Assembly (NCBI GenBank): GCA_034429715.1
Contig: DAOUFR010000013.1
Span: 56,095 to 120,094, forward strand
Source: Dehalococcoidia bacterium
Lineage (GTDB): Bacteria; Chloroflexota; Dehalococcoidia; GIF9; UBA5629
DNA: 64,000 bases
Direction: 5' to 3'
Below the pieces are notes generated by a model, which had not been told where the DNA came from, made no database searches, and saw only the letters and a list, made by a program, of their open reading frames with translations. This document shows positions 1 through 57,335 of this stretch, piece by piece (the first letter of the stretch is position 1; each line of letters starts with the position of its first letter). Made by a program: the position numbers and the translations under genes.

Positions 1-378
1 TAGACTCATAAAATTTGAGATTATCCTTATCACAAGCAACATACCTATTGCCCATATTAATGCTTTCCCAAGTTTCATCCTCTGTTTGTATTGTAATCTT
101 GTGGACATTATCAAGAGGAACTGCTTTCACAAAACCCAAAGAAATTAGTTGTTCTTTAGTATTTTGAACTTGATCGCTGAACTCGCCCAAAAGATATTTT
201 TTATAAGAAAAAGGTTTTATTTTTTTACTATATCGCTCAGATATATAAGTGATTTTCTGAAGGCGTAGTGCTCCATATACACCGTTGTCAAATTTTCCTA
301 TGATGGTATATAAGTATATTCTTCGGAATACATCAGCAGGAATAGCGCATAAGTTATTGTCACACGTATCTTGCTTCA
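1..378 (-). CDS. hypothetical protein, 5' part only (continues past the window start)
   Basis: ATG at 378 on the minus strand is preceded by a GGAGGAG Shine-Dalgarno (plus 384-390). An open frame of at least 126 codons runs to position 1. The region is AT-rich and I recognise no family. Confidence 0.4.
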
Positions 379-452
379 TATCTCCTCCAATTACTTAATT
401 TGATTATACACTGTGCTAATTCAAAATGATATGATGCCAAGCATGACCTAAA

Positions 453-1022
453 TCATTTAGTTAACCACTTAGCAACTCCACCGTGATGTGAACAAGTACC
501 TTGGCGGTGTTGGCTATAACTACATGTCCCATCTCTGCAAATTGCCGTAGCTCCGCTGCATGGCTGCGTGTTTGTGCTTTTCATTGGGGGTATGTTATTT
601 GGTTTTGTGGTCTTTGTGGCTGAAGTATCAGTGCTGGATTTTGAAGGGGTATTATCTGTAGTTGAATTAGGGATGGTACTAGTAGGTATATTAGTAATCG
701 GTTTTGAAGGAGCATAGTTTGAATCTAAATTGGTCGTGGTATTGGATGGTATGATCGGTAGATTTGGTGTACTCTGGATATTTGTATCAGCGGTGATCGT
801 AGAGTTAGAGGAACAAGCACCTAATGTTATTCCACCTAGTACCACAATAATAAATACACTTATTGAGATACAGCATCCAAGCGCACTTCCTATTTTTCTT
901 TGGCGTCCCTGTCTTGTAAGGGGAATACCAGTTGTTCGGGAAACTTTTCCTTTAGCACCTGAGATTCCTACCGCTCGTTTCCACGAAAAGGAAACCCCGA
1001 ATTTCTTGCCCACCCTAACCAC
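453..1022 (-). CDS. secreted or lipo-anchored protein with an S/T/N/P-rich linker and a C-terminal Cys-rich DUF3761-like domain
   Basis: Hydrophobic signal segment with a lipobox-like LGAC. Long low-complexity Ser/Thr/Asn/Pro linker. C-terminal motif CSGATAICRDGTCSYSQHRQGTCSHHGGVAKWL resembles the DUF3761 consensus (C.DG..S.S...G.CS.HGGV..W). The true start is probably an internal non-ATG codon. Confidence 0.5.
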   Translation of the reverse strand: MVRVGKKFGVSFSWKRAVGISGAKGKVSRTTGIPLTRQGRQRKIGSALGCCISISVFIIVVLGGITLGACSSNSTITADTNIQSTPNLPIIPSNTTTNLDSNYAPSKPITNIPTSTIPNSTTDNTPSKSSTDTSATKTTKPNNIPPMKSTNTQPCSGATAICRDGTCSYSQHRQGTCSHHGGVAKWLTK

Positions 1023-1100
1023 CTTCCAACTAAAATCAGCATTCTATTATATACCTTCTAAATCATATTTGCTATACTTAAATAATCATCGTTTGGGAGG

Positions 1101-1355
1101 GTGGATATGTCGAGCTATTTCAATCAGCGGCCAAACACTTCCGAACAACAGGAGAAATACGACATACTTCACAGAGCGAACGGAAGGTGCGAATGTGATA
1201 GCACAAGGCACGATCACAACCAAAAATGCAACCGGCGATTGTACAGTACCTATAGATTCTACTCACAAATTGGCGACCAAGCTAATATTCGTTCTTATAA
1301 TTCTGTTGTGGTTTGCAGTGTGTGTGCTCGTTACATAAAGGACGTAGGATATTAA
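1101..1355 (+). CDS. small 84-aa Cys4 zinc-finger-like hypothetical protein
   Basis: GGGAGGGTGG Shine-Dalgarno lies 5 nt upstream of the ATG. Two Cys pairs (CEC...C and CSVC) are present. The gene overlaps the convergent 147-aa gene by about 74 bp. Confidence 0.35.
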   Translation: MDMSSYFNQRPNTSEQQEKYDILHRANGRCECDSTRHDHNQKCNRRLYSTYRFYSQIGDQANIRSYNSVVVCSVCARYIKDVGY

Positions 1356-1725
1356 CTAACTTGTCTATGTAATGAGGTTCAATACGCAATACTATCGTTG
1401 GCGTGTGTCTTGAATACCATTCAATTCCTATTGATACAGCATCACATTCAATATCATTTTGTATATTCTGACCAATAAAAGTCCATAACCTATCAGCAAA
1501 ATTTGCAACCTCGGCTAAGTCTGCTGTCTCATCATTATCGTAATTAACGGCGTAATCAAGTTCAACTGTGGCCCAATGAGTATCGCTTCCCTGACAACTT
1601 TCAATAGTACATACTTTTGGTATCTGGTTTAACAGTTCCACCAATTCCTTTATGCCTTCATCAACATAAACAGTAACTTTTGCAGGCACTTGTTTGTGCA
1701 CAGAATCCCACACATTGGCACTCAT
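1282..1725 (-). CDS. hypothetical protein, 147 aa, no recognised family
   Basis: GGAG lies upstream of the ATG at 1725. Codon use is consistent and AT-rich, matching the surrounding island. Confidence 0.45.
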   Translation of the reverse strand: MSANVWDSVHKQVPAKVTVYVDEGIKELVELLNQIPKVCTIESCQGSDTHWATVELDYAVNYDNDETADLAEVANFADRLWTFIGQNIQNDIECDAVSIGIEWYSRHTPTIVLRIEPHYIDKLVNILRPLCNEHTHCKPQQNYKNEY

Positions 1726-1778
1726 TTCCGATACTCCCTATATTAGAAACATATTGATATGCGTATTATCCACCTGAT

Positions 1779-2006
1779 ATGATTGTTTATATGGATCGTT
1801 GGGTTGCGGTAGTGTTAGCTTTTATTGTCTTGAGTGCTGGCATAGCGGTAGAGGTAATAATTGGAATAGCAATCACCCAATTCTTTATTGAAGTATCTAA
1901 ATTTGATCCCACAGGAATTGTCATTTTAATCATAGTTGTGTTTGATGTAGCTGGGATTGTTGCTTTATGGAAAGAAATATCTTCATTTTTTAGTGGCCTT
2001 TTCTAA
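1779..2006 (+). CDS. small hydrophobic membrane protein with 2 predicted TM helices
   Basis: 75-aa ORF made almost entirely of two hydrophobic helices. Located in the AT-rich island. Confidence 0.3.
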   Translation: MIVYMDRWVAVVLAFIVLSAGIAVEVIIGIAITQFFIEVSKFDPTGIVILIIVVFDVAGIVALWKEISSFFSGLF

Positions 2007-2343
2007 TTTCCTTTTATACCACAGAGCGGTCAGCAACATGGCTAAAGCTGATATAGCCAATACTAGCATTAGTGCCGCCATTAATCCCATATAACTTAGA
2101 ATTAGATACTTCTGGCAAGAAGTCATCGTACTCGTAAGAATAGCATCAATTATATAGTTAAACATTTTATCTATACGACCTTAACTTCCCAATTTCTTAA
2201 TGCGTTGGCTGGTGAAATACTTAGACGTAGGCAATCTTTTATGGCAGAATAAAGGTGAACATGAATTGTGCGCTTGAATAGGAAAATCAACAAGGAGTTT
2301 ACTTGAGCATAATTGTACATTAGAACATAATAGGTGTTCACCG

Positions 2344-3312
2344 ATGTCGAATTTAAAATATTTTATCACTTCAAAGGCCAAGCGCAACGTGCTTTACCTC
2401 TTTTTGCGCGACACAAGCAAGCGATATTATACCCGGGAGGTGGCCCGCTTAACCGGGGAGCCGCTGAATGCTGTCCGCCGGGAGCTCGGATACCTGGAGA
2501 ACGCCGGATTGTTCACTTCACGTGCTCAGGGCAACCTCAAATATTATGAAGTCGTTAAGAGCTTCCCGCTTCTGTCGCAGTGGCGGAAAATAATTTTAGA
2601 GTCCTATGCGGATCAGCATCCCGCAACTGCTGAGACCCCCACTCCCGCCATTGCCATCGTAGAAAATCGTACTCCACAGGCTATTGAGTTCATAGACGAG
2701 GAAGTTAAAAAGCGTCCGCCGGAGATAAAGCATGCCATTGCCATGACCGAATCATTCAAACATACACCGCTGGAAGACGGCGACAAACCCATCATACCGG
2801 GCATGCGTGTGGTTCCCAATCACGGCCGACAACCGCTGCCCGATGTCATAGAACTCCCTGCCCATGTTGTTTCAGCAGGGGAAATCGAAGAAACTGTTTT
2901 AATCAACGCGGCGGCGGAACAGCCGATGGAACAACCGATGGAACAACCGATCGAACAGCCAACGGAACAGCCACAGGAGTCAGGGCCCAGGACCATCCTC
3001 ACACTCCAGTCAGTGGTCAACCATCTGCGTGACCAGTTGAAAGACATAAACACCATCAACCTCGCCCTCATACACGGCGAGGCCGCCAGGCTGGAGAGCA
3101 TTCCTGAAAACGGCCTCGACCTGCTGATCGTGGGGGACATGAGCAGGGATATGATCATGGAGCTGATAGCCGTTTTCGAGGATGCCTCCGGCATCGAGGT
3201 TAACCTGACCAGCATGACCCGCAGCGACTTCGACTACCGTAACGCCAAGGGCGACGCGTTCGTCAGGCGCATCTGGGGAGAGAAGAAACTGGTGATAAAG
3301 GGACGGCAGTGA
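2344..3312 (+). CDS. winged-helix DNA-binding protein with a C-terminal minimal-nucleotidyltransferase-like (MNT-fold) domain
   Basis: N-terminal region (YYTREVARLTGEPLNAVRRELGYLENAGLF) looks like an ArsR/MarR-type wHTH. C-terminal HGEAARLESIPENGLDLLIVGD aligns to the pol-beta/MNT motif hG[GS]xARGx5SDhDLhhh but with degenerate acidic residues. An internal (EQPM)x5 linker repeat is present. The gene begins exactly where GC content rises. Confidence 0.6.
   Translation: MSNLKYFITSKAKRNVLYLFLRDTSKRYYTREVARLTGEPLNAVRRELGYLENAGLFTSRAQGNLKYYEVVKSFPLLSQWRKIILESYADQHPATAETPTPAIAIVENRTPQAIEFIDEEVKKRPPEIKHAIAMTESFKHTPLEDGDKPIIPGMRVVPNHGRQPLPDVIELPAHVVSAGEIEETVLINAAAEQPMEQPMEQPIEQPTEQPQESGPRTILTLQSVVNHLRDQLKDINTINLALIHGEAARLESIPENGLDLLIVGDMSRDMIMELIAVFEDASGIEVNLTSMTRSDFDYRNAKGDAFVRRIWGEKKLVIKGRQ
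2917..2976 (+). repeat. 5 x 12-bp in-frame tandem repeat encoding (E-Q-P-M/I/T) units in the 2344-3312 CDS
   Basis: Units are gaacagccgatg, gaacaaccgatg, gaacaaccgatc, gaacagccaacg, gaacagccacag. Confidence 0.8.
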
Positions 3313-3364
3313 GAGCGCCGGCCCGTACCATGCTACAGATCGGCCATTTCTGTTAAAATATCGC

Positions 3365-5311
3365 ATGCCAGTCGATCCTTCGATTATTTTTCAGGCGTCC
3401 AAGCTGGGCGACCTGCCTTATATAGTCAAGGAACTCGATCGCGCCGATAAGCTCCTTGAAAAGAATCAGCCGGTCGGGCGCATCTACGGCGTCAGTGGCG
3501 GAGCTCTGACGGCAACGGCCTTTGCGCTGGCGCTGGCTGCGAAAAAAGATCCGCAAAAGTGGGGCAAAGCCGCTACAGCCATAAGCGATTTCCGCAGTTT
3601 CCTCTCGAAGGCCAGAGGTGACCAGATCCGCTCGTTCAACGTCAACCCATGGTACGGACGGTCCAACCTCAATCCTTTGAGGAAATGGCTGGAAAGGAAG
3701 TTAAATCATTACTGCAGCGATACGGCGGGCGCACCTGAAGGTACGCCTCTACAGCAGTTACAGGTATCCGACCTGGGCCTTCCGCTTTACATCTGCACCA
3801 TGGACCGCGATGCCGTCTTCACCATGTTCGGCCCGCCCGACGATACTCTGCAGTGCCCGTATCAGTTCATGCACATGGGCCCGCCGCAGGATGCTCCCCT
3901 GATAGATGCCGTAATAGCGGCGCTAAGTACATTGCTTTCGACCCGTCCATCCACCGTCAACGATAAGTATGTTTACGACTGCCGGCCGCCTATAGTCGAT
4001 GCGGGCGCCATCGTGGCCGACCTTGAGGCCAAGGACCCTCGTCCTATTCTTCGCACCAAACCGCATGCTGAGGTGCGCAAATGGAAGCTCAACTTCATTA
4101 CCTCGGTCTTCATCATGCACTCGCAGCATGAGCGTAACCAGACTATAACGGCCGATTATTACCTGGACCTACTGCGGCGCCATCGCGAGCTCCTGCAAAA
4201 GGTAAAGCAAGCGCAGCCCGATTTCTCCATGCAAACGCTCAAGACAAAGGGCCCTCTTCCGGCCGCTGGCCATGCGGACCTGCCATACGTGGGCTCGACC
4301 GAGGCCGCCACCAACATGCTCGAATCGTCGAAAAACCGCGTGGCCATTATGGCCCGCTTCAGCGAGATACTGAACGGCCAGCTTGACAGCTTCCCCTTCG
4401 ATCGACCGGCAAACATCATCTACGGCGCCGGCGGCTTCTCGGGTATACTGGGAGGACTGGTTACCGCGCGAGCCGTGGACGAAGGCTTCAGGCAGGGAGG
4501 AGGTGAGATAAAGCAGATCTACGGCGTCTCCGCAGGCGTGCTCAACGGCTTTTTCCACGCGGTACAGGTGGCAGCAGCGCACTATCCAGACACATATAGA
4601 CCCGAAGCACAACATGCGCTGGAGGACCTGGAGGATTTCATCGCCAACCTGCGTACCGACAGGCTGGTCAGAATAAACCGCAATCCCCTGCGTTTCTGGC
4701 AGGGCTGGGGCAACCTCGAGCCACTGCAGGAATTTCTGGCCCAAAAGCTGAAAGAGTACACGGGTGCGGCCAGCCCTGAAACGCTGACCTTCGATGATAT
4801 TAAACTTCCCCTGACCGTAACTGCTGCGCGCGCCGACGGTTTCACGGATTTCCTGGGCATGACAGGTCCTGACAGGCATTTCGAATTCGGCGGCCTCACC
4901 TGGAAGGTGCTGGAAGCCCCCATCATCAGGGCTGTAGCAGCCGGCTGGAGCATGAACACCTACATCGAACCGGCCGATCTCAACGGCCAGAGGTATCGCG
5001 ACGGCGGGGGAACATTTTACGACCCGTCGCTGCTGGTAGTCTGCCTGGACCCGGAGCTGGTCAATCTCATCACGGTCCATCTCGATCACCCGGAGAGCCA
5101 CAGCGAGAACCTGCCGGAATACCCGGACATCAGCCGTATTATCCTTGACACACACAACTATACCTTCCCCGAGCAGCAGCGCCGCATGCGCAGACTATCT
5201 ATGCTTTTCTACGACCACTTCCGCCTGCGACTGTACGCCCGGGAGAACAATATACCTGTGGAACCTGATTTCCGCCGCCAGTGGAAACTGCAGAATACCG
5301 GTTACCTTTAG
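3365..5311 (+). CDS. patatin-like phospholipase with two tandem patatin domains
   Basis: Two GxSxG nucleophile elbows (IYGVSGGAL near the N-terminus, IYGVSAGVL mid-protein). The second domain has a DGG catalytic Asp motif (YRDGGGTFYDP). The first domain has DAGA in its place, possibly degenerate. Glycine-rich oxyanion stretches (GAGGFSG) are present. Confidence 0.8.
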   Translation: MPVDPSIIFQASKLGDLPYIVKELDRADKLLEKNQPVGRIYGVSGGALTATAFALALAAKKDPQKWGKAATAISDFRSFLSKARGDQIRSFNVNPWYGRSNLNPLRKWLERKLNHYCSDTAGAPEGTPLQQLQVSDLGLPLYICTMDRDAVFTMFGPPDDTLQCPYQFMHMGPPQDAPLIDAVIAALSTLLSTRPSTVNDKYVYDCRPPIVDAGAIVADLEAKDPRPILRTKPHAEVRKWKLNFITSVFIMHSQHERNQTITADYYLDLLRRHRELLQKVKQAQPDFSMQTLKTKGPLPAAGHADLPYVGSTEAATNMLESSKNRVAIMARFSEILNGQLDSFPFDRPANIIYGAGGFSGILGGLVTARAVDEGFRQGGGEIKQIYGVSAGVLNGFFHAVQVAAAHYPDTYRPEAQHALEDLEDFIANLRTDRLVRINRNPLRFWQGWGNLEPLQEFLAQKLKEYTGAASPETLTFDDIKLPLTVTAARADGFTDFLGMTGPDRHFEFGGLTWKVLEAPIIRAVAAGWSMNTYIEPADLNGQRYRDGGGTFYDPSLLVVCLDPELVNLITVHLDHPESHSENLPEYPDISRIILDTHNYTFPEQQRRMRRLSMLFYDHFRLRLYARENNIPVEPDFRRQWKLQNTGYL

Positions 5312-8089: not shown

Positions 8090-10375
8090 CTATTTTAGCA
8101 CGTTAAGCAGTCCGCGTAATAAAATGACAGCCGCTTTTTTATCCAGGGGCTCGTTGTTATTCCCGCACTTGGGCGACTGTATGCAGGCCGGGCAGCCCTC
8201 TCGGCAGGGACATTCCTCAATAGTCTTGAGCGTCGCAGCCCACAGGCCCTCGATGATTTCATAGCCTTTCTCCGCTATACCTATTCCGCCCGGGTAGCCG
8301 TCGTAAATAAAAATCTGCGCTTTTCCGGTATCTACATGAAAGGGTGTGGAGACCCCCCCGATATCATTGCGGTCGCACATGGCGAACAGCGGCAGTATAG
8401 CGATTGCGGCATGCTCCACCGCATGAAGCCCGCCATGAAAATCGAGCTTGTTCTTTTCTATGACATCCATCGCCTGCTGCGGCAGATCGAACCACAACGA
8501 CTGGGTGATGAAACGCATGGGCGGCAGATCCAATACCTCTTCGCCGATAACCTCGTCGGTGTAATGCTTTTTCTTGCGAAAGCCTTCGACCTGGTTGGTC
8601 ACGTCCACCATGCCAAGCCGGATTTTCACGCCTCCGGACTCCTTATCCTTCATCTGCTGAAGTATCTTTATGTCGGTCAACTCCATGGTCTGCGTGTAAT
8701 AAGGGACTGCGGCCGGCTCAACCAGGGCAATATGCTTCTCGATATCAAGCTCCTTGACGAAATAGGAATCGCCCTGGTGCAGGTAGATGGCGCCGGGATG
8801 CACCTGCCAGAAGGCATGGTCCTCCTCGATCGTCTCCAGTACCTGAAAGCCTCTGGAGGCATCCAGTAGCTGATACTGATCGGAAGAGGCGGTCCTGATA
8901 TTCACATCCTGCGCCGGATGTGACAGCCGGGGTGAGATATGCCAGCGGTCGCCCTCCTTTCTCAGCTTACCCTCTTCGCTCAGCTCGGCTCCGGCTGCAT
9001 CGAGCGCATCACCGAAATATTCCCTGTCTTTTTCGTCAATGTGTTTCTCCCAGGCGGCGCACAGCAAGTGCGGGTGAAGAATGTTTATGTTCTCCCAGTT
9101 GATGAGGGCATTCTCAAAGGGTTTACCGAAGAAGAAATCGGGATTATGCATGAAATACTGGTCCAGCGGATTATTCTGCGCCACGAGAAAGGTGATCGAC
9201 TTCTCGCCCCTCCGCCCGCTTCGCCCGGCCTGCTGCCAGGTGCTGGCGATGCTGCCCGGGTAGCCGGTCAATACCGTGGCATCCAGCCCGCCGATGTCGA
9301 TTCCCAGTTCAAGGGCGCTGGTGGCCACCGCCCCCAGCAGCTCGCCCGAGAACAGTTCTCTTTCAATCTCACGCCGGTCGGCGGCCAGGTAGCCGGCTCT
9401 GTACGGCTTAATCTTTTCACCCAGGGGGCTGCCCAGCTGGTCTCGGCTGTACACATAGATCAGCTCTGTTAACCGGCGCGTGGAGGCAAAGGCAAGGGTA
9501 CGCACCTGCCTGCGCACAAGCTCTGTGAACAGCTGGGTTACCTCGCTGTTGGCGCTGCGCCGCAGGCTGCGTGCCTCATCGACGATGGGAGGGTTCCAAA
9601 ATACGAACGCCTTGCCTCCGTAAGGAGCTCCATCATTATCCACGACTTCAAACGGCAGGCCCGCCAGTCCTTCAGCATGTTGCCCCGGGTTGGCAATCGT
9701 TGCTGAACAGAACACAAATTGTGGCCTGCTGCCGTAATGAGCACATATACGTCTCAATCTGCGCAGGACGCAGGCCACGTGCGATCCGAACACTCCCCGG
9801 TATATATGCGCCTCATCGACCACCACATATTTGAGACGCCTGAAGAACTTGTCCCACGATTTATGGTTCGGCAGGATGCCGGCGTGCAGCATATCCGGGT
9901 TGGTGAGCACAATACGTGCTCTTTTCCTGATGCCCGAACGGTCTTCGCCGGGCGTATCCCCATCGTAAGTGGCGCATTCCCAGGGCAGATTAATGGCGCC
10001 GCCGGCCAGCCAGGTAAGTCCGCGCAACTGGTCCTGGGCCAGAGCTTTGGTGGGGAAAAGGTAGAGGGCGCGGGCATAAGGCTCCTCCAGCATAGTATTC
10101 AATACCGGTATGTTGTAGCAGAGGGTCTTGCCGCTGGCGCTGGGCGTTGCGACCATTACATTTTTTCCCAGTCTGATGCTGTTAATGGCCTCAGCCTGGT
10201 GTGAATAGAGAGTGTTCAGCTCGAGCTTGTCGAGCCGTCCCTGTAGAACAGTGTGAAAGGGCCTGTCAGGCCACCCGGGGCGCGCGTCGCGCGGTGGTAT
10301 ATATTGAACATGAACGATCTGGTCTTTGTACTCGGGGTCGTTCTTGAGGTAATCGAGGAACGCGGAGGTATCCAT
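8090..10375 (-). CDS. DEAD/DEAH-box helicase of the YprA/MrfA family with a C-terminal DUF1998 (MrfA Zn-binding) domain
   Basis: Walker A ATPSASGKTL, DEAH box VVVDEAH, helicase C motifs, and C-terminal 4-Cys CPCREGCPAC...CG characteristic of DUF1998. Confidence 0.85.
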   Translation of the reverse strand: MDTSAFLDYLKNDPEYKDQIVHVQYIPPRDARPGWPDRPFHTVLQGRLDKLELNTLYSHQAEAINSIRLGKNVMVATPSASGKTLCYNIPVLNTMLEEPYARALYLFPTKALAQDQLRGLTWLAGGAINLPWECATYDGDTPGEDRSGIRKRARIVLTNPDMLHAGILPNHKSWDKFFRRLKYVVVDEAHIYRGVFGSHVACVLRRLRRICAHYGSRPQFVFCSATIANPGQHAEGLAGLPFEVVDNDGAPYGGKAFVFWNPPIVDEARSLRRSANSEVTQLFTELVRRQVRTLAFASTRRLTELIYVYSRDQLGSPLGEKIKPYRAGYLAADRREIERELFSGELLGAVATSALELGIDIGGLDATVLTGYPGSIASTWQQAGRSGRRGEKSITFLVAQNNPLDQYFMHNPDFFFGKPFENALINWENINILHPHLLCAAWEKHIDEKDREYFGDALDAAGAELSEEGKLRKEGDRWHISPRLSHPAQDVNIRTASSDQYQLLDASRGFQVLETIEEDHAFWQVHPGAIYLHQGDSYFVKELDIEKHIALVEPAAVPYYTQTMELTDIKILQQMKDKESGGVKIRLGMVDVTNQVEGFRKKKHYTDEVIGEEVLDLPPMRFITQSLWFDLPQQAMDVIEKNKLDFHGGLHAVEHAAIAILPLFAMCDRNDIGGVSTPFHVDTGKAQIFIYDGYPGGIGIAEKGYEIIEGLWAATLKTIEECPCREGCPACIQSPKCGNNNEPLDKKAAVILLRGLLNVLK

Positions 10376-47350: not shown

Positions 47351-49576
47351 ATGCCCAGCACGGTTATCTGCCAGAGGTGTCATGAGATCAATGAACCCAA
47401 CGCTACAGTCTGCCAGAAATGTGGCGCGAGGTTCTGCCCGCATTGCCACCTGTTAATCCCCTCACCCGACGCGGCCATCTGCCCGCACTGCGGCAAGAAA
47501 GATCTATCTTTCAGGCCGGGTAAATATTCCGCCGGCAATGTCGCAGCTTCGACGGTGGCGCCGGGCGCCATGCCGGCCAGCAGGTATGTCTGCCCGAGCT
47601 GCGGGAACAGGATAGATCCTTCGCTGGGCAAGTGCCCCTATTGCGGCCAGCTGGGAAACCGTTTCACCATGATTCCCACGCAGGGCCACGGCGTGATGAA
47701 GCCCGCCCAGGGCGACTACGCCCACACATTCGCGGCGCCTCCCCCCGCCGAGGAGGGACAGAGCACGCAGAAGGTCTGTTCCAAGTGCGGCCGTGTCATA
47801 CCGCCCGGCTCCAGCCTGTGCCCTGTGCACGGCAAGTTCGGGGGCGGCAACGCGCTGAGAAATATCACTCCTCCCGTCAGGGACAAGACATTTGAGGGAG
47901 AAGTATACAAGAGGATGGAGGAGAGGAAGGCCGGCCCCGCTCCCCGTTCCAGCGTCAGGCAGGTAGCGCCGGAGGAGATATATCCGCAGATGCAGGCCGC
48001 TCCGGCTACGCCGGAGGCGCCGGCCGCGCCCGCTGAGCAACGCACCTGTTCCAACTGCGGGAATGCCGTGCCCGACCGCAGCAAGGTCTGCCCCACCTGC
48101 GGCAACAACCGTCTTCCGCCGGAGAGGAAAAAGCCCTTTTTGAAGGCCGAGGACCGCTATAGGGCTGTGGAGGCTGCGCAGCAGGCTTACGCCGCATATC
48201 CACCTCAGCAGCAGGCCTATGCAGCATATTCTGCGCCGCAGCAGAGCCAGTATTACGGGCAGCCGGCGGTGCAGCCGTACGAGATGGCCTACCCGGCGCC
48301 GTCGCCCGGATTCGTAGAGGAGATTTATCCTGAGAAAAAACGCGGGAAGGAGAAAATGCCCCGTGAGCGCAAGGAGAGGATGGCAAAGCCGGGGCAGAGG
48401 TCTTCCCCCATTCCCATACTGCTGGCGCTTATCGCGCTGGCCGGGGTCATCATCATCGGAGTCGTATTCCTGATCGACCAGCTCAAGACGCCCGCGCCAG
48501 CCGTTATTAGCAATCCCCCCATCACAACTCCCACCGGCACAACCGAGGGACCCGAGATATCCGAGGTCGAATATTCCAATATCACGCGTACCGGCGCTAC
48601 CGTGACCTGGAAAACCGACAAAGAGTCCAACAGCCTGGTGATCTACTGTCTGGAGGGTGGTACCCTCTGCGAAAACGCCAGGGACAACGAGCTGGTCACC
48701 AACCACAGTGTCAACCTGACCAATCTCGAACAGGGCACATCATATCACATAACCGTGAAATCGGCGCTGGGCGACGATCCCGATTCGCCGGACTCCAGCC
48801 TGGAGGTCACGGGCGTTCTGACCACCCTGAACGTACAGGATACGACACCGCCGATACTCAGCAATGTAAAGGTCACCAATGTCACCAGCGGAGGGTCGGC
48901 GGAGATCACCTGGAACACCGACGAGCCGGCCACCAGCCAGGTCAGCTACGGGACGTCCGCCAGTTACGGAACACTGCAGCCTTCGCAGACCGACACCCAG
49001 CTGACTACCTTCCACGATGTGATGCTCAACGGGCTGGCGCCGCAGACGACCTTCCATTACAAGGTGATATCGAGGGATGCCGACGGCAACGAGAAGTCGT
49101 CCGCCGATGCCACATTTACAACGCCCGTCCCGGCCGGAGCAAATATTGGAAATTCGGCGCCCGATTTCACACTGCAATGCGCGGACGGTACCCAGGTGAC
49201 GCTCAGCTCGCTGCAGGGCAAGAAAGTCATCGTCAACTTCTGGAATTTAAACTGCCACTTCTGCATGGAGGAGATGCCCGATTTTCAGACTGTGCGTGAT
49301 AACCATACCGACAGCAGTGTGGCCATACTGATGATCAACAGCGCCGCCGGAGGATTCCCCGCCAACAATAATGTGTACGTAGGTAATGAGATTACAACTA
49401 ACGAGTGGACCTTCACTGTTCCATTGGACGACTCCGGCGCCGTTGCCCAGGCCTACGACGTAATGAGCGGCATACCGGTGACCTTTTTCATCGACTCCAG
49501 CGGAATCATCAGGGCCAAGCAGGACGGCAAATTCCTCAGTGCAGACGCCATCGAGGCCAAGCTGAGTTCTTATTAA
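47351..49576 (+). CDS. membrane protein paralog: 5 zinc ribbons, Pro/Gln/Ala-rich linker, TM helix, 2 FN3-like repeats, TlpA-like thioredoxin domain (CHFC)
   Basis: Five CxxC...CxxCG ribbons. TM IPILLALIALAGVIIIGVVFLI. FN3-like repeats. FWNLNCHFC redoxin motif. Confidence 0.7.
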   Translation: MPSTVICQRCHEINEPNATVCQKCGARFCPHCHLLIPSPDAAICPHCGKKDLSFRPGKYSAGNVAASTVAPGAMPASRYVCPSCGNRIDPSLGKCPYCGQLGNRFTMIPTQGHGVMKPAQGDYAHTFAAPPPAEEGQSTQKVCSKCGRVIPPGSSLCPVHGKFGGGNALRNITPPVRDKTFEGEVYKRMEERKAGPAPRSSVRQVAPEEIYPQMQAAPATPEAPAAPAEQRTCSNCGNAVPDRSKVCPTCGNNRLPPERKKPFLKAEDRYRAVEAAQQAYAAYPPQQQAYAAYSAPQQSQYYGQPAVQPYEMAYPAPSPGFVEEIYPEKKRGKEKMPRERKERMAKPGQRSSPIPILLALIALAGVIIIGVVFLIDQLKTPAPAVISNPPITTPTGTTEGPEISEVEYSNITRTGATVTWKTDKESNSLVIYCLEGGTLCENARDNELVTNHSVNLTNLEQGTSYHITVKSALGDDPDSPDSSLEVTGVLTTLNVQDTTPPILSNVKVTNVTSGGSAEITWNTDEPATSQVSYGTSASYGTLQPSQTDTQLTTFHDVMLNGLAPQTTFHYKVISRDADGNEKSSADATFTTPVPAGANIGNSAPDFTLQCADGTQVTLSSLQGKKVIVNFWNLNCHFCMEEMPDFQTVRDNHTDSSVAILMINSAAGGFPANNNVYVGNEITTNEWTFTVPLDDSGAVAQAYDVMSGIPVTFFIDSSGIIRAKQDGKFLSADAIEAKLSSY

Positions 49577-49793: not shown

Positions 49794-50252
49794 GTGATTG
49801 ACAAGATTGACCGTAAACTGATTATCGAACTACAGAAAGATGGCCGTTACAGCTGTGCATCTTTAGCAAAAAAGCTGGGAATCGGTATATCATCCGTATC
49901 CAGAAGGATCAGACGATTACAGCAGGAAAAGATAATTAAAGTCATAGCCGTGCCAAACGCTGAAAAGCTGGGGCTTGTGGCAACTGCAATAATTGGAATG
50001 GATGTCGATATTGATAAGATAGACAGCGTGTGCTCCAAGCTTGTTATTCACGAAAACATACTCAACGTGGCAATTACTTTTGGGCGGTACAATGTACTGA
50101 TTGAAGCCTATCATCAATCTACAGAGGCATTGCTCAATTTTCTTAAGAATGAACTTTCACAGATCGATGGAATACGCAGTATAGAGACTTACTATATTGC
50201 CGAACTCAAGAAGCGTACCTACGGTTTATTGCAGGAACATATTCAAGCTTAA
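49794..50252 (+). CDS. Lrp/AsnC-family transcriptional regulator
   Basis: N-terminal HTH (DRKLIIELQKDGRYSCASLAKKLGI) and C-terminal RAM/ACT-like domain. GTG start. Confidence 0.8.
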   Translation: MIDKIDRKLIIELQKDGRYSCASLAKKLGIGISSVSRRIRRLQQEKIIKVIAVPNAEKLGLVATAIIGMDVDIDKIDSVCSKLVIHENILNVAITFGRYNVLIEAYHQSTEALLNFLKNELSQIDGIRSIETYYIAELKKRTYGLLQEHIQA

Positions 50253-50301
50253 CGACAGCAAATACAAAACTCTTGTTCAAGAATTCCCATGGAAATCACA
50301 A

Positions 50302-51498
50302 TCACATGACTACTTTATCATGACGCAGATCAGCCATTTTCTTACTATTGTAACCAAGCTCTTTTAATATTTCGGCGGTGTGTTCACCCAGAAACGGCCC
50401 GAAACTTCTTACTCCGCCCGGTGTATCAGAGAGTTTAATAGGCAGACCCACCTGCTTTACCTTTCCCTCAGTCGGATGGTCGAGTTCAAGCATCATCTTG
50501 CGGTGCGCGATCTGAGGATCGGAAAAAACCTCACCAAGCTGATAAACAGGAGCAATACATATATCTTTGCTTTTCAAGAAATCAAACCATTCATCTCTGG
50601 TTTTTGTCAGAAAAATACGTTGGAAACAATCTCTTATCGCTTCCCTTTCCTGTCCGCCAGCAAATTGCTTCGGTATGAAATCCTCTTTGCCTAAAGACCT
50701 GCAAAGGTTCTCCCAGAATTTTGGTTCAAAGCACCCCAAAGTGATATAACCGTCATCTTTAGTTCTATAAACAGTAGCCCAGGGAAAGACGCCGCTAAAC
50801 ATGGTATTCCCCCTTCCGGGTTCGTCTCCCGTCATAAAATAATCAGAGATGAAGCGAACCAATAACGAAACAACTCCATCGGTCATCGATATATCCAGGT
50901 ATTGTCCCCTGCCGGATTTTTGCGCTGCTATTAAAGCCAGCAGAATACCGACAGTCGCCATTAAGCCACCACCTGCGTAATCAGCCAGTAAATTCAAAGG
51001 TAATACGGGGGCTTCACCCGAATTGCCGATCAGGCCTAATGCACCTGCAATCGCGATGTAATTTGGATCATGTCCGGGCAATCCAGCATAAGGCCCGGTC
51101 TGACCATAGCCGCTGATTGAACAGTAGATCATCCTTGGATTGATCCGGCGAATATTCTCATAATCTATGCGGAGACGTTTGACCACACCGGGTCTGAATC
51201 CATCTACGATTACATCTGCTTTACAGGCAAGTTGCATAAAAATGGCGTGTCCCTGCTCTGTTTTAAGATCGATCGCTATACTTTTCTTGTTTCGCAGCAG
51301 CGCCGTAAATGCAGTTGCCGCCCTTCCACTTTCTCCCTTCAGGGGAGATACACCAGATCCAAAGATCGGTTCGTCTTGTCCCCTCGGCTGTTCAACCTTT
51401 ATCACTTCCGCGCCCATATCTGCAAGCATCATCGTACAGTAGGCATGCGGTGCAACACGGCTCAAATCTAAAACTCGTATGCCATCTAATGGGCCCAT
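50302..51498 (-). CDS. family III CoA-transferase (CaiB/BaiF family)
   Basis: N-terminus GPLDGIRVLDLSRVAPHAYC. Conserved catalytic Asp region of CaiB/BaiF. Confidence 0.85.
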   Translation of the reverse strand: MGPLDGIRVLDLSRVAPHAYCTMMLADMGAEVIKVEQPRGQDEPIFGSGVSPLKGESGRAATAFTALLRNKKSIAIDLKTEQGHAIFMQLACKADVIVDGFRPGVVKRLRIDYENIRRINPRMIYCSISGYGQTGPYAGLPGHDPNYIAIAGALGLIGNSGEAPVLPLNLLADYAGGGLMATVGILLALIAAQKSGRGQYLDISMTDGVVSLLVRFISDYFMTGDEPGRGNTMFSGVFPWATVYRTKDDGYITLGCFEPKFWENLCRSLGKEDFIPKQFAGGQEREAIRDCFQRIFLTKTRDEWFDFLKSKDICIAPVYQLGEVFSDPQIAHRKMMLELDHPTEGKVKQVGLPIKLSDTPGGVRSFGPFLGEHTAEILKELGYNSKKMADLRHDKVVM

Positions 51499-51652
51499 TC
51501 AGGTACCTCCATCTAAATATCGATCGGTTATCAAGCTGTTCACCATTCCATCGGGCGGCTCAAAGGGAGGCGCGGGCAATTGACCCGCCTCCTGCATGTT
51601 ATGTCGACTGCCACAATAAATACCGTGGCTCAGGCTATTTCAAAGGCTTATC

Positions 51653-52945
51653 TCACCTGGTCTCAAAAACAATCTGGACTTTCTCAACTTTATCCACATC
51701 TTTCTTATAGAAAAACGACCCTGCGAAAAAGAGGACACCGGCAACTATGAGCAACACAGGCATTCCCTGCAATGCTTTATCCAGGCCGTATACATCAGAT
51801 AAAGCTCCGATAACGAGGGGGCCAAGAGCACTGCCCAGCAGGCATTGAATAACTATGTTAACGCTGTGCGAGGTGGACCTGAGGCCGGGGTGGACGACGT
51901 CCTGTGTAACGGCTATAGCACCCGGGGCATACATTATAACCAGTAATCCGAAGCCAAGAAGTATGCTGAACTGAAGGCTCCCGTGAAAGAGAAAGGCGAT
52001 GAACAGCAATATTGCCGCCAGGGTACAACTGATGGCGGGAACAAGCATTCTGGCATTGGATTTCCGTTTAAGCCACTGATCGGTGAGAAAGCCGCTCAAC
52101 GGGGCGCCTACAATTGCCAGCAACATAACCACACTGGCCATCAAACCCGAGCGTTCGATGCTCATCCCCTCGAATCTCTGAAAATATGAAGGCAGCCAGG
52201 TCGTCATGGCCGTAGTAGTAAATCCACATGCAGCAAATGCCAGGTTGTTAAAGACCAGCGACTTGCTGCGGAACAGCTCTTTGACAACATCGAGTTTGCT
52301 CATTTTTACTTTGCTTGATGATTCATCCGCGGTCACAGACTTTTCGAGTGCAATTGTTTTATAATCCTTCACCCAGAAAAACAAGATAGCAATGATAATC
52401 CCGGGAATTGCCACAATGCCCAGTGCATGCCTCCACCCCAGCGCAACAGCAATTACACCACCTACTGTAACTCCCACAGCCATCCCCAGCGGGATGGCAG
52501 ATTGCCATATCCCTATCATCCTGGCACGCTTTTCCGGCTTGAAAATTGCAGAGATCATCGCAGCGCCACCCGGTGAATACCCGGCTTCGCCAACCCCAAC
52601 GACACAACGTGTGGCAAAGAGTTGCGCGAAGTTCGTGGTAAACGCACCGGCTGCCGTCGCCAAACCCCATATAATTGACATTAAACCGATGCTCTTTTTT
52701 CGGCTCCAACGATCCACCAGAGCACCAACAGGCAAGGTGAATACCACGAGAGACCAGAAAACCGCTGATATCATCAGCCCGCATTGAACATCAGTTAAAC
52801 CCCAGTCGCTCTTAAGAAACGGGAATAGTGATATGATGACAAACCTGTCGATGTAATCAAACATGAAGAGCAGATATAAGAGAATATAGGCATACCATGC
52901 TCTCCACCGCGGGTAAGTTACAGCTGCTTCCGTGCTCTGGTTCAT
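51653..52945 (-). CDS. MFS transporter
   Basis: 12 predicted TM helices. MFS loop motif (GALVDRWSRKK). Confidence 0.8.
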   Translation of the reverse strand: MNQSTEAAVTYPRWRAWYAYILLYLLFMFDYIDRFVIISLFPFLKSDWGLTDVQCGLMISAVFWSLVVFTLPVGALVDRWSRKKSIGLMSIIWGLATAAGAFTTNFAQLFATRCVVGVGEAGYSPGGAAMISAIFKPEKRARMIGIWQSAIPLGMAVGVTVGGVIAVALGWRHALGIVAIPGIIIAILFFWVKDYKTIALEKSVTADESSSKVKMSKLDVVKELFRSKSLVFNNLAFAACGFTTTAMTTWLPSYFQRFEGMSIERSGLMASVVMLLAIVGAPLSGFLTDQWLKRKSNARMLVPAISCTLAAILLFIAFLFHGSLQFSILLGFGLLVIMYAPGAIAVTQDVVHPGLRSTSHSVNIVIQCLLGSALGPLVIGALSDVYGLDKALQGMPVLLIVAGVLFFAGSFFYKKDVDKVEKVQIVFETR

Positions 52946-52985
52946 TTAAAACTACCTCCCCTCGCTTTTTATTTCATATGGGCCG

Positions 52986-54221
52986 TTATTGCACAACGCC
53001 GTCGTTTATTAACGAAGCAAAATCTTCACCAGATAAATTGAGAATTTTGGTGCAGACGAATTCGTTGTCCTCACCTAAAAGCGGCGCTCGTCCTGCTGCA
53101 TATGGTGTTGCGGACAGTTTAACCGGCCAACCTTGCACTATGTACTGTCCCAGTGTCGGATGGTCGACGGATGAATAATAGCCTCGATGCTTCAGCTGGG
53201 AATCCTTATATACTAAATCCTCTCCTCGTTTGACAACACCCGCTGCTATGCCTGCCTTCTGCAATTTACGTACCAGCTCTTCCGGTGAATAGCCAGATGT
53301 CCATGCCCCTATCAGCTCATCCAGTTTATCCTCATTGTCTTTCCTGCCAGACAGGGTAGAGAACTCAGGCTTACCAGTCCAGCCGGGATTACCCATCAGC
53401 CGGCATAAGGTGTCCCAGTCCACGTCTGTGGAAATAGATATAACACACCATCTGTCCTCACCTTTGCATCGATATACATTATTGGGGCAGGCATAAGATG
53501 ATCTGTTACCACATCTGATCTCTTCATGCCGGTTAACTGCATAATCAAGAATTGTGGGGGATATGCTGTGAAGAGTGGCCTCGAGCTGAGATATGTCAAT
53601 ATATTGGCCTTTACCTGTACGCTGCCGGTAGTCCAGAGCTGCCATTATGGCACACAGAGAAATCACGGGAGTAACAACGTCCGGATACACATCCGGAGGT
53701 GCGGTGGGTTCTCTGTCCTCCCAACCTGTAATGTGATAAAGCCCCGTTGCACCGGCTGCGTGTATGCCCCAGCCCTTAAAGGAAGAAAGAGGACCGGTTT
53801 GCCCCTGGTTACTTATGCTTACCAGGATGACATCGCTTTTAACTTTTTTAAGTTCGTTATAGTCCAATCCCCATCTTTCCATGCCGCCCGGACCGAAGTT
53901 CTCAATGACCACGTCACTCCACGCGACAAGCATCTTGGCAACTTCTATTCCGCGAGGGTGACCGAGATTGAGCGTCAGGCTGCGTTTACCATTGTTGAAT
54001 ACAGGGAATGCTATCGAGTGATCAAGGTCGACTTTGTCATCTTTATATGGCGAGCTTAACCGGCATAAATCAGGATGGATCCTGGATTCTAACTTTATCA
54101 CCTGTGCTCCAAAATCAGCCAGGTATGCGCCGCATATTGGTCCGGCCACCACCCATGTGAAATCAAGTACTTTCAATCCCTGCAGAGCATACATCTTTCG
54201 CACCTCGTTCAAATAATGCAA
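52986..54221 (-). CDS. family III CoA-transferase (CaiB/BaiF family)
   Basis: LQGLKVLDFTWVVAGP N-terminus and CaiB/BaiF fold. Confidence 0.85.
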   Translation of the reverse strand: MHYLNEVRKMYALQGLKVLDFTWVVAGPICGAYLADFGAQVIKLESRIHPDLCRLSSPYKDDKVDLDHSIAFPVFNNGKRSLTLNLGHPRGIEVAKMLVAWSDVVIENFGPGGMERWGLDYNELKKVKSDVILVSISNQGQTGPLSSFKGWGIHAAGATGLYHITGWEDREPTAPPDVYPDVVTPVISLCAIMAALDYRQRTGKGQYIDISQLEATLHSISPTILDYAVNRHEEIRCGNRSSYACPNNVYRCKGEDRWCVISISTDVDWDTLCRLMGNPGWTGKPEFSTLSGRKDNEDKLDELIGAWTSGYSPEELVRKLQKAGIAAGVVKRGEDLVYKDSQLKHRGYYSSVDHPTLGQYIVQGWPVKLSATPYAAGRAPLLGEDNEFVCTKILNLSGEDFASLINDGVVQ

Positions 54222-55465
54222 TCCTGCTTCAACTTTCCAAGCTCCTGCGATGAAAGTCCTATCTCCTTTCCAAGAATTTCAGCATTATGTTCACCGATAA
54301 GCGGAGCCCGGCGGTGCATTGCACAAGAGGTCTCGTTAGAAATGAAGATGAAAGCCGGATAAGGGATAGGACTGTCTAATTCAGGATGCTCCAAATACCT
54401 CCAGTATCCTCTGGACCGAAAATGTGAACTCTCATATACATCTTTAGGAGAATATACCTTTAGAATTCGCAGGCCTCTTTTAAGCGCCTCATTTTGGATT
54501 TCGTCCTTTGTAAAGTGATTGAAGAAATCCTGGATGATGCTATTCCAGGAGTCGACTTCCGACTGTGATATCTTCGACATGTCGATCGATGCCCAATCGA
54601 CTTCTTTCAAGATACCCGCTTCTCCCTGTTCATCAATCCATTTCACCAGGGCAGTCCACTCCTGCGCACCCCATATGCCACCCATAAATCGCCAGAGTAC
54701 ATAACCGTCTTTACATTTCCAGACGTCTCGCTGATAAGCATTGCCTCGCAATATGATATTGCCTCTTCTGGTTTCGGATATCCCCCTTCCCGCAATCCAC
54801 GGCAGAATGCTATAGCCAAAACGCAGGACAGCCTCCTGGATTGAGACATCCACATGCTGCCCTTGCCCCGTCGCCTTACGATAGTAATGAGCAATCAGTG
54901 CTCCTGCAGTCGCATGTATGCCAGCAAGGAAATAAGATTGGTCACCTCCCATTCGCAGGGGAGGTCTGTCGGCATCGCCCGTTATATACATCAGCCCCCC
55001 TTCCGCCATACAAACAATATCCGATCCCCTGCGATCCTTATACGGACCTGTCTGCCCAAAAGGAGTAATCGATATCATTATCAGCCCGGGATTCAGTTTA
55101 CTCAGCGTACTATAGCCCAGTCTCAGTGAATCCAGATATCCCGGGGTGTAAGTCTCCAGCAAGAAATCAGCCTTTCCAACCAAATCTTTGAAAATGTTTT
55201 TGCCGGCCGCGGTCTCAATATCAAGCGTAATGCCTCGCTTGTTAGCATTGTAAGCAAACCAGTGAAGGCTCTTCTCCGGGTCCTGAATATTGTGGTAAAA
55301 CGGCCCGATTCTCCGGCTGGCATCTCCTCCGGGCCTTTCCACTTTGATGACATCCGCTCCTAAATCCGCCAGTAATTTGCCGCAGATAAAACCTGTTTCA
55401 TCTGCTAAGTCTAAAACACGGTATGGATCTAACGGCGCGCTGTGATCCTCACCTTTATCTACCAT
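54209..55465 (-). CDS. family III CoA-transferase (CaiB/BaiF family)
   Basis: YRVLDLADETGFICGKLLADLGADVIKVE N-terminus. Stop overlaps the next CoA-transferase start. Confidence 0.85.
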   Translation of the reverse strand: MVDKGEDHSAPLDPYRVLDLADETGFICGKLLADLGADVIKVERPGGDASRRIGPFYHNIQDPEKSLHWFAYNANKRGITLDIETAAGKNIFKDLVGKADFLLETYTPGYLDSLRLGYSTLSKLNPGLIMISITPFGQTGPYKDRRGSDIVCMAEGGLMYITGDADRPPLRMGGDQSYFLAGIHATAGALIAHYYRKATGQGQHVDVSIQEAVLRFGYSILPWIAGRGISETRRGNIILRGNAYQRDVWKCKDGYVLWRFMGGIWGAQEWTALVKWIDEQGEAGILKEVDWASIDMSKISQSEVDSWNSIIQDFFNHFTKDEIQNEALKRGLRILKVYSPKDVYESSHFRSRGYWRYLEHPELDSPIPYPAFIFISNETSCAMHRRAPLIGEHNAEILGKEIGLSSQELGKLKQDCII

Positions 55466-55517
55466 TGATTAATCTCCTGCCATTAGAGCATTAAATAAAT
55501 ACCTGGAACACCCTGCT

Positions 55518-57246: not shown

Positions 57247-57335
57247 GGAGGGGTGACCGAGTGGACGATGGTGACGGTCTTGAAAACCGTTTTAGCTTCG
57301 TGCTAACGCGGGTTCGAATCCCGCCCCCTCCGCCA
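57247..57335 (+). tRNA. tRNA-Ser (anticodon UGA), type II with long variable arm, CCA encoded
   Basis: Acceptor stem GGAGGGG/CCCCTCC. Anticodon loop CUUGAAA. Long variable arm. T-arm GCGGGTTCGAATCCCGC. 3' GCCA. Confidence 0.85.

Follow-up and report, generated by a model that had tools for sequence, protein, structure and literature searches.

A degenerate winged-helix antitoxin relative and a tandem patatin as probably independent chromosomal neighbours in Dehalococcoidia

Two adjoining genes of a Dehalococcoidia genome, one (gene 1) encoding a winged helix-turn-helix (wHTH) protein with a degenerate minimal nucleotidyltransferase (MNT)-like domain and the other (gene 2) a tandem patatin, are probably two independent, vertically inherited chromosomal genes that are neighbours through conserved synteny and form no functional module. 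A preliminary description of the same DNA had read the domains of both proteins in this way and had suggested that the pair, just outside a horizontally acquired island, is a CBASS-like defence or abortive-infection module; the domain readings held, and the module did not. All positions given below are those of the window, the whole stretch of 64,000 nucleotides that was analysed, and all gene features lie on the forward strand.

Locus layout and the AT-rich boundary

Gene 1 (2344..3312, 322 aa) and gene 2 (3365..5311, 648 aa) are separated by a gap of 52 bp, in agreement with the spacing and shared strand first described. The reported change in composition at the start of gene 1 was also recovered, with a GC content of 35–37% up to about 2300 (35–38% in the inserted DNA as a whole) and of 48–58% thereafter, the AT-rich DNA stopping about 33 nt before gene 1. 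Homology to the related loci L076, L079, L081, L001 and L035 begins only at about 2312, 33 nt 5' of the gene 1 ATG; in relatives the AHSA1/flavin-reductase intergenic region abuts gene 1 at the place where AT-rich DNA stands in the window. From the composition and this homology limit, the inserted DNA was assigned to 1..2311, without a strand; it is truncated by the window edge and lies outside both genes. It encodes one DUF3761 protein, its edge-truncated ORF at 2–379 gave no Pfam match, and none of its ORFs matched a PADLOC model. This AT-rich DNA arrived separately and recently, at a site next to gene 1 that is a recurrent hot spot of integration.

In relatives, mobile and defence cargo (SoFic, a C5 methyltransferase and IS elements) is gathered at the gene 1 flanks, so the neighbourhood of gene 1 is not purely housekeeping.

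The gene 1 protein, its operator and its descent

The N-terminal domain of gene 1 (residues 1–88, 2344..2607) was identified as a wHTH from the family alignment, an AF2 model and matches to HTH_20 and DUF2250 in family members, 10 of 20 of which match HTH_20. It is ArsR/HTH_20-like, nearly invariant within the family in the alignment, and modelled in an H-H-H-E-E topology with a pLDDT of about 90; the match of gene 1 to the NCBIfam ArsR-type model (E = 0.003) fell under the cut-off. The linker that follows (residues ~89–214, 2608..2985) is disordered, with a pLDDT below 50, includes EQP(M/I/T) repeats and a weak PT-repeat match, and differs in length among homologues, being missing in some. 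The C-terminal domain (residues 215–322, 2986..3312) was assigned as MNT-like from PADLOC, Pfam and the motif register. Its 105 aa match the PADLOC PDC-M05A model PDLC04368 with an E value of 2.9e-27, four more M05A models also match, and the PDC-M05A models cover both the wHTH and the MNT domain; Pfam Polbeta is matched by 8 of 20 family members (best E of 1e-5), and NTP_transf_2 matches were obtained as well. AF2 modelled gene 1 dependably only at the wHTH, the C-terminal domain having a pLDDT of 40–68, and PDB sequence searches with the gene 1 and gene 2 proteins returned nothing useful. No transmembrane segment was found in gene 1.

In a register fixed only by a marginal match of the C-terminal domain profile to a PDB nucleotidyltransferase (E = 1), Gly-245–Glu-246 (3076–3081) stands where G-S is expected and Gly-257–Leu–Asp-259 (3112–3120) where D-x-D is expected. 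These changes are subfamily-wide, with G245-E/D/K in place of G-S and G257-x-D/E259 in place of D-x-D, the first Asp being an invariant Gly; each of the 20 aligned members has degenerate motifs. The fusion of a wHTH to an MNT-type domain with a degenerate GS/DxD motif, as noted in the preliminary description, is borne out by the PDC-M05A, HTH_20 and Polbeta matches and by the alignment. With this catalytically degenerate domain fused to a wHTH, a regulatory role is likelier for gene 1 than an enzymatic one, as had been proposed.

The 5' control region of gene 1 (2314..2343) is near-invariant across loci whose gene 1 proteins are 44–90% identical, and conservation marks within it a −10-like TACATT (2316–2321), a palindrome GAACA-N7-TGTTC that is a putative operator (2323–2339), and an SD-like AGGTG (2332–2336). 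Island DNA now stands where the ancestral −35 element TTGAAA was; a promoter scan found a window-specific TTGAGC-17-CATAAT (2303–2331) that could stand in for it. The palindrome lies at −20 to −28 in 16 of 17 loci, and no further than 60 nt upstream in 63 of the 72 orphan relatives and in 6 of the 7 that are paired with HEPN. The exact pattern is unique within the window. The palindrome also recurs where znuC meets znuB in five relatives, and another copy stands at window position 11967; both are probably due to chance, as about one random match is expected in a sequence set of this size and the recurrent copy lies inside conserved coding DNA. A hairpin formed by the gene 1 leader RNA was considered instead of a DNA operator and rejected (−6 kcal/mol, z = −1.1).

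A profile search with gene 1 gave 3198 cluster representatives at E ≤ 0.001, the best 150 of which are mostly proteins of ~190–200 aa with a wHTH and an MNT domain; the canonical GS...SDIDL is kept by most of the aligned broader relatives of ~195 aa. In the nearest canonical relatives a HEPN gene overlaps the wHTH-MNT gene or lies at +5 to +8 nt. The PADLOC candidate system PDC-M05 is described as a nucleotidyltransferase plus a HEPN protein (PMC12988326), and it is with such MNT-HEPN modules (MntA-HepT type, M05A plus M05B) that gene 1 has its closest ties, through the M05A homology of both domains, its ~195-aa wHTH-MNT kin with their overlapping HEPN genes, and the same promoter and GAACA-N7-TGTTC palindrome in the HEPN-paired relatives. 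In contrast to these modules, the gene 1 subfamily lacks the GS...DxD used for toxin nucleotidylation that is canonical in most of the broader relatives, has a disordered linker of ~125 aa inserted, and occupies a fixed, syntenic chromosomal slot. The ORFs flanking gene 1 in the window gave no HEPN match with Pfam or PADLOC as an M05B partner would, and no HEPN match was found by tblastn in the orphan-type loci, whereas loci L075 and L137–L146 do match. Toxin AMPylation by gene 1 is implausible, given the change of G-S to G-E/D/K and of the first Asp of DxD to an invariant Gly.

Judged from these sequence comparisons, gene 1 descends from the wHTH-MNT antitoxin of the MNT-HEPN modules and is now an orphan with a degenerate catalytic domain. 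Its lineage would have lost the HEPN partner, the catalytic Ser and the first Asp and gained the long disordered linker, and would have retained the ancestral promoter and palindromic operator. With this operator retained, gene 1 is most likely an autoregulated transcription factor, its product acting as a DNA-binding autorepressor in which the dead nucleotidyltransferase domain would serve dimerisation or ligand binding. An AHSA1 or flavin-reductase gene lies divergently within 300 bp of gene 1 in 40 of 60 loci, and this operon, the steadiest neighbour, may also be under gene 1 control.

The tandem patatin and its promoter

Gene 2 as a whole matches Pfam Patatin (PF01734) with 50.1 bits, above the curated cut-off. 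Its halves match the same model separately (28.7 bits for the N-terminal and 25.6 bits for the C-terminal half), and they are homologous to each other (BLASTP, 1e-16), which confirms the tandem, pseudo-dimeric patatin of the preliminary description. The N-terminal part (residues 1–343, 3365..4393), delimited by Pfam, the repeat, invariant columns and the model, consists of a divergent patatin copy and a long helical connector. It carries an invariant Ser-44 in GVSGG (3494–3496) and an invariant Asp-205 (3977–3979), the DGG motif being altered to D-C-R-P, and it lacks the glycine-rich oxyanion loop, at the place of which FQxxKLG is invariant; the absent loop had gone unmentioned in the preliminary description. 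The C-terminal part (residues 344–648, 4394..5311) is a canonical copy with all three patatin motifs, GxSxG, DG[GA] and the oxyanion loop; Ser-389 in GVS389AG (4529–4531), Asp-546 in D546-G-G (5000–5002) and the loop G354-A-G-G...S-G are all invariant. The contrast drawn at the outset between an intact second copy (GVSAG plus DGG) and a first copy with an altered Asp motif is thus accurate, the altered residue being Asp-205 in D-C-R-P. In the model of gene 2, the two copies are confidently packed together (pTM of 0.87), and the fold resembles plant patatin, iPLA2beta and PlpD as closely as it does CapV/CapE. No transmembrane segment was found.

Unlike the single-domain patatins (plant patatin, PlpD, iPLA2beta and the RssA type), gene 2 fuses two copies per chain, one of which has no glycine-rich loop and D-C-R-P for DGG with Ser and Asp invariant, and its family is restricted to Chloroflexota (64 of 64 genome loci). 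A literature search found nothing relevant on a tandem patatin, on a patatin in Dehalococcoidia, or on a patatin with a lysophospholipid transporter. The gene 2 product would be a soluble cytoplasmic acyl hydrolase in which a canonical and an altered Ser-Asp site are joined in a covalent pseudo-dimer, and with this predicted activity and a presumed lipid substrate it likely has a role in membrane (lyso)lipid turnover.

A putative promoter of gene 2 was recognized by its conservation as an extended −10-like element, TGTTAAAAT, at 3351–3359 (region 3351..3364). The element, TGnTAAA[AC]T, stops 5 nt short of the gene 2 start codon (ATG) and is kept in all Dehalococcoidia-type loci in any upstream context; a regular expression recovered it in 30 of 32 metagenome loci, and it is visible in the other two. 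No SD sequence is evident at the gene 2 start, and the mRNA would be leaderless or near-leaderless from this extended −10. No terminator-like site was detected in the 52-bp gap of the window, so read-through co-transcription and some regulatory coupling with gene 1 are possible.

Conserved synteny, rival readings and meaning

The association of the two genes was counted in both directions, and pairing was found to be obligate in neither, contrary to what a module would imply. Starting from the patatin, 9 of 10 informative Dehalococcoidia-type loci have gene 1 upstream, almost always adjoining and on the same strand, and none of 38 Anaerolineae-type loci has it. Starting from gene 1, the patatin is present in 22 of 36 informative loci and absent from 14, and patatin-free loci (L068/69, L071/72 and L073/74) occupy the same syntenic slot. 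Between 0.4 and 5.3 kb of unrelated genes are inserted between gene 1 and gene 2 in relatives. The chromosomal backbone around both genes is syntenic in relatives, and the two proteins diverge in step with their neighbours in identity, namely the ABC transporter, the MrfA-like helicase, DUF503 and zf_Tbcl. The GC content is host-like for gene 1 and for gene 2 (56–59%), gene 2 holds the same position in relatives without the AT-rich island, and tblastn gave no plasmid or phage match for its patatin. In the Anaerolineae, a same-strand GPH-family MFS transporter adjoins the patatin in 26 of 37 loci, following it after 7 nt in L003 and after ~25–40 nt in most other cases. Its best solved-structure matches are the MFSD2A lysolipid symporters (E of 3e-54, as against 5e-27 for MelB), MFSD2A being a lysophosphatidylcholine symporter, and it resembles glucuronide and YagG-type sugar symporters too. 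Pairs of a lysolipid transporter and a lipid enzyme are known, as in LplT-Aas of E. coli, an analogy that applies to the Anaerolineae arrangement only; the window contains no GPH-family transporter.

These counts bear on the idea that gene 1 is a sensor or antitoxin that activates or restrains a membrane-destroying patatin during phage infection, in the manner of CBASS (CD-NTase plus CapV) or a toxin-antitoxin pair, which we consider very unlikely. Gene 1 matches no PADLOC CBASS cyclase and no Pfam CD-NTase model; its domain is of the 105-aa MNT type, not cGAS/DncV-like, and appears catalytically dead without the Ser and first Asp. Gene 2 matches no PADLOC model, CapV, CapE and other effectors included, and is a 648-aa tandem patatin as near in fold to non-immune patatins as to the CBASS effectors; the match of gene 1 to PDC-M05A is the only PADLOC match of the pair. 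The patchy, mobile operon conservation of CBASS is not seen: the two genes diverge vertically in a core-like manner and are not kept as a unit, and the patatin has no plasmid or phage copies. Their own promoter-like elements, the frequent occurrence of each without the other and their separate inheritance argue against a CBASS-like module. The location at the island edge had been counted as a sign of defence in the preliminary description; the island is separate and recent, and the genes are host-like in GC and diverge with their housekeeping flanks. We give almost no credence to the patatin being a stand-alone toxin or defence effector brought in by the AT-rich island. Many defence systems use a patatin as effector, the fold matches of gene 2 include CapV and CapE, and the gene lies 1 kb from the island boundary; however, its host-like GC, its constant position in island-free relatives, its 50–63% identity across Anaerolineae, including the cultured Leptolinea tardivitalis YMTK-2 and Leptolinea sp. 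HRD-7, and the lack of any PADLOC, plasmid or phage match all speak against such an arrival.

A closer functional link, in which gene 1 serves in the Dehalococcoidia lineage specifically to regulate transcription of the patatin gene, is favoured by the two genes lying side by side on one strand in most Dehalococcoidia-type loci, by the gap without a predicted terminator and by the strong conservation of the wHTH. Such a local regulator-target pair is nonetheless unlikely. Save for the one probably fortuitous coding-region site, the palindrome occurs at the gene 1 promoter alone and not near gene 2, which has its own unrelated −10 element; gene 1 still occupies this locus in relatives that lack the patatin, and its most constant companion is the divergent AHSA1/flavin-reductase operon. 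Two unrelated core genes in conserved synteny thus remain the probable reading. The outcome that the preliminary description had set against its own proposal, a lineage-conserved lipid-remodelling patatin beside an ordinary local regulator, is essentially what we found, the lipid-remodelling role being a predicted one.

These results carry a caution, as a nucleotidyltransferase-like gene beside a patatin at an island edge mimics CBASS, and it took a two-way neighbourhood census to expose the conserved synteny of two unrelated core genes. A lone PADLOC match to PDC-M05A should likewise not count as a defence system. More tentatively, the tandem patatin may found an undescribed, Chloroflexota-wide lipid-handling system, in which a pseudo-dimeric (lyso)phospholipase with an altered N-terminal copy for regulation or a second substrate would, in Anaerolineae, join the MFSD2A-like GPH partner in repairing membranes and salvaging lysolipids or glycolipids. 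Gene 1, for its part, may be an MNT antitoxin that was recruited as a chromosomal transcription factor and still acts on the ancestral toxin-antitoxin operator. Gene 1, kept with its operator, would in that case illustrate antitoxin domestication. The uncharacterised tandem-patatin family, which spans Dehalococcoidia and Anaerolineae, could bear on membrane lipid turnover in this poorly studied phylum.

Composition boundary and insertion hot spot

Genes 1 (2344..3312, 322 aa) and 2 (3365..5311, 648 aa) lie on the plus strand, separated by 52 bp. The GC content is 35–38% until ~2300 and 48–58% thereafter, and in alignments homology with the closest relatives starts at ~2312, 33 nt 5′ of the gene 1 ATG. 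Because ORF positions, gap, GC change and homology start all agree, the preliminary description of a closely spaced same-strand pair at a composition shift is accurate. In relatives the two genes are 43–87 nt apart in most loci and 0.4–5.3 kb apart in others.

The AT-rich insertion (1–2311, its left part cut by the window edge) encodes on the minus strand an edge-truncated ORF (2–379), a DUF3761-domain protein that includes a Thr/Ser/Asn/Pro-rich stretch of low complexity (453–1022) and a 147-aa protein of unknown function (1282–1725), followed by two small hydrophobic ORFs (1779–2006, plus; 1983–2165, minus). PADLOC gave no matches for the ORFs of this DNA, and no integrase is visible within 1–2311. 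In the closest relatives (L076, L079 and L081) AHSA1 begins ~145–160 bp 5′ of gene 1; the insertion takes the place of this region up to ~2311, displacing an AHSA1-flavin reductase cluster. Low-GC insertions occupy both flanks of gene 1 in other relatives, with cargo comprising IS transposases of the IS240-type DDE class (L077 4100–8000 and 8967–11800; L093 3850–8000), SoFic (L093 3850–8000; PADLOC, 8e-102), a C5 DNA methyltransferase with HTH_17 (L096 921–3800), a CHASE2-cyclase/FecR/GAF-HD/metallo-beta-lactamase signalling cluster (L084 8877–14100; CHASE2-cyclase/GAF-HD also in L091) and a HicB-like gene (L001 7507–7746). Since both flanks collect such insertions, genes 1 and 2 form the conserved frame of an insertion hot spot and are not part of its cargo.

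Elsewhere, a second lower-GC stretch (49794–56681, 43–50% GC) encodes an AsnC-type regulator, three family III CoA-transferases, an MFS_1 transporter and an acyl-CoA dehydrogenase, and ends near the only tRNA gene of the window (tRNA-Ser, anticodon TGA, 57247–57335); it is possibly an acquired set of catabolic genes. To its left (47351–49576, plus), a 741-aa protein has an unusual domain fusion in which several zinc ribbons at the N terminus are joined to fn3, a purple-acid-phosphatase N domain and, at the C terminus, an AhpC/TSA redoxin.

Gene 1 and MNT-HEPN modules

No Pfam family scored above its cut-off on the gene 1 protein of the window, and among 20 family members HTH_20 was detected in 10, Polbeta in 8 (best E 1e-5) and NTP_transf_2 in 2. 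Both ends of the protein match models of PDC-M05A, the PADLOC MNT-HEPN nucleotidyltransferase (best E 2.9e-27). AF2 predicts a winged helix at residues 10–88 (pLDDT ~90) and disorder at residues 92–222, and models the C-terminal domain with low confidence; among the aligned family members the wHTH hardly varies, and the linker ranges from absent to ~130 aa. The C-terminal domain follows the pattern LALIHG[E/D/K]AAR..IP..G[ILV][D/E]LL[IV]VGD, in which, on alignment with a PDB nucleotidyltransferase, G-E pairs with G-S and G-I-D with D-I-D. Searching 1.84 billion cluster representatives with a profile gave 3198 relatives at E <= 0.001; most of the best 150 listed are wHTH + MNT proteins of ~190–200 aa, and most of the broader relatives aligned retain the canonical FIYGS...SDIDL. 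The subfamily alignment, the PDB register and the canonical motif in broader relatives thus confirm that the GS/DxD motif is degenerate, a property of the whole subfamily.

PDC-M05 consists of a nucleotidyltransferase and a HEPN protein, with an unconfirmed antiviral role (PMC12988326), an architecture that is that of MNT-HEPN toxin-antitoxin modules. An overlapping HEPN gene lies directly 3′ of P0243, the nearest canonical relative of gene 1 (locus L075), and a metagenome scan yielded wHTH-MNT genes (L137–L145) whose wHTH shares 59–67% identity with the gene 1 wHTH and which are followed, after 5–8 nt, by a HEPN gene. Whereas in these modules the HEPN gene adjoins the wHTH-MNT gene, we found no HEPN partner in the window or in the orphan subfamily to which gene 1 belongs.

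The ~30 nt 5′ of gene 1 hardly vary between loci, although the encoded proteins share only 44–90% identity, with the conserved order TTGAAA-17-TACATT, palindrome GAACA-N7-TGTTC, AGGTG and ATG. The palindrome lies at -20 to -28 of gene 1 homologues in 16 of 17 loci, and within 60 nt upstream in 63/72 orphan-type and 6/7 HEPN-paired loci; in the latter it is immediately 3′ of a TTGACA-17-TACGAT promoter. Its exact match occurs once in the window. An RNA hairpin was rejected as its meaning (z = -1.1); we infer a putative autoregulatory operator inherited from a toxin-antitoxin ancestor. AT-rich DNA has taken the place of the ancestral -35 in the window, where its role could be filled by a TTGAGC-17-CATAAT match. 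Five relatives (L001 3209; L009 1922; L007 1887; L010 2755; L070 3198) carry a second copy of G[AG]ACA-N7-TGT[TC]C at the znuC/znuB junction, ~2.8–3.3 kb 5′ of gene 1, and one copy lies inside a PKD-domain gene at 11967 of the window; these are probably chance matches conserved within coding sequence.

Relatives of gene 1 share one syntenic slot, bounded on the left, on the opposite strand, by FUR/ZnuABC/flavin reductase/AHSA1 and on the right by an MrfA-like helicase, DUF503 and zf_Tbcl. Between these may be nothing (L071/72), an amino-acid ABC transporter only (L073/74), DUF5671 genes (L068/69) or patatin plus ABC transporter (window, L001, L070). The helicase (8090–10375, minus; 761 aa, DEAD/Helicase_C/WHD_HRQ1/MrfA zinc-binding MZB) matches the PADLOC SngC, BrxHI and DruE models (E 1e-37 to 1e-39); as a syntenic core gene beside DUF503 and the treble-clef zinc-finger gene in all relatives, its context argues against a defence reading of these single-gene matches. 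A divergent AHSA1 or flavin reductase gene lies no more than 300 bp from gene 1 in 40 of 60 loci, and 5 more have one at a greater distance, with starts of gene 1 homologue and AHSA1 ~100–160 bp apart (L076, L079, L081 and most of L076–L155) and the order AHSA1 (SRPBCC)-flavin reductase(-FUR-ZnuABC). This operon, not the patatin, is the constant neighbour of gene 1, and is a candidate regulatory target. The most probable reading of gene 1 is an MNT antitoxin that has been domesticated as a transcription factor regulating its own gene.

The tandem patatin and its neighbours

The preliminary domain assignments were right for both genes. Gene 2 scores 50.1 bits with Pfam Patatin (separate halves, 28.7 and 25.6 bits), its halves align to one another (E 1e-16) and its AF2 model is confident (pLDDT 85, pTM 0.87). 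Across 23 homologues the C-terminal copy keeps G354-A-G-G..S-G, G-V-S389-A-G and D546-G-G invariant, and the N-terminal copy S44-G-G and D205-C-R-P, with FQxxKLG in the glycine-rich loop position; half scores, self-alignment and motif columns bear out one intact and one altered patatin. No hydrophobic segment was found in the protein.

The pair had been read as a CBASS-like or abortive-infection module, for which co-occurrence speaks in part: gene 1 lies upstream of the patatin in 9 of 10 informative Dehalococcoidia-type loci. It does so in none of 38 Anaerolineae-type loci, and among 80 metagenome loci the patatin is present in 22 of 36 informative gene 1 loci and absent from 14, so the module is not supported. 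From relative to relative, the identity of genes 1 and 2 to their window counterparts changes in step with that of the adjoining SBP, permease, ATPase, helicase, DUF503 and zf_Tbcl genes, in line with vertical descent. The element TGnTAAA[AC]T, ending 5 nt short of the start codon of gene 2, is kept in every Dehalococcoidia-type locus, whatever lies 5′ (gene 1 stop, HicB-like gene, methyltransferase or other cargo), suggesting a putative extended -10 promoter of gene 2's own with a leaderless start. Some room is left for regulatory coupling because adjacency is tight within one clade and no terminator was found in the gene 1-gene 2 gap of the window.

Full-length gene 2 homologues (55–90% identity) occur in Dehalococcoidia, Anaerolineales and Leptolinea. 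All 64 patatin loci found with one genome per GTDB species are from Chloroflexota, among them Leptolinea tardivitalis YMTK-2 and, as a complete genome, Leptolinea sp. HRD-7, and tblastn against plasmids and phages gave no matches. A GPH-family MFS transporter adjoins the patatin in 26 of 37 informative Anaerolineae-type loci (among L018–L067) and in 0 of 13 Dehalococcoidia-type loci; it lies 3′ on the same strand, after 7 nt in L003 (9943–11322) and mostly ~25–40 nt elsewhere. The Anaerolineae transporter matches TIGR00792 (300 bits); among solved structures it matches MFSD2A lysophosphatidylcholine (lysolipid) symporters best (3e-54, versus 5e-27 for MelB), and it has further similarity to symporters of the glucuronide and YagG types. 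The literature searched held no description of this pair. Gene 2 encodes a tandem patatin conserved in its lineage, with a probable role in (lyso)lipid turnover. The main interest, low to moderate overall, is in this uncharacterised tandem-patatin family and its transporter link in Anaerolineae.
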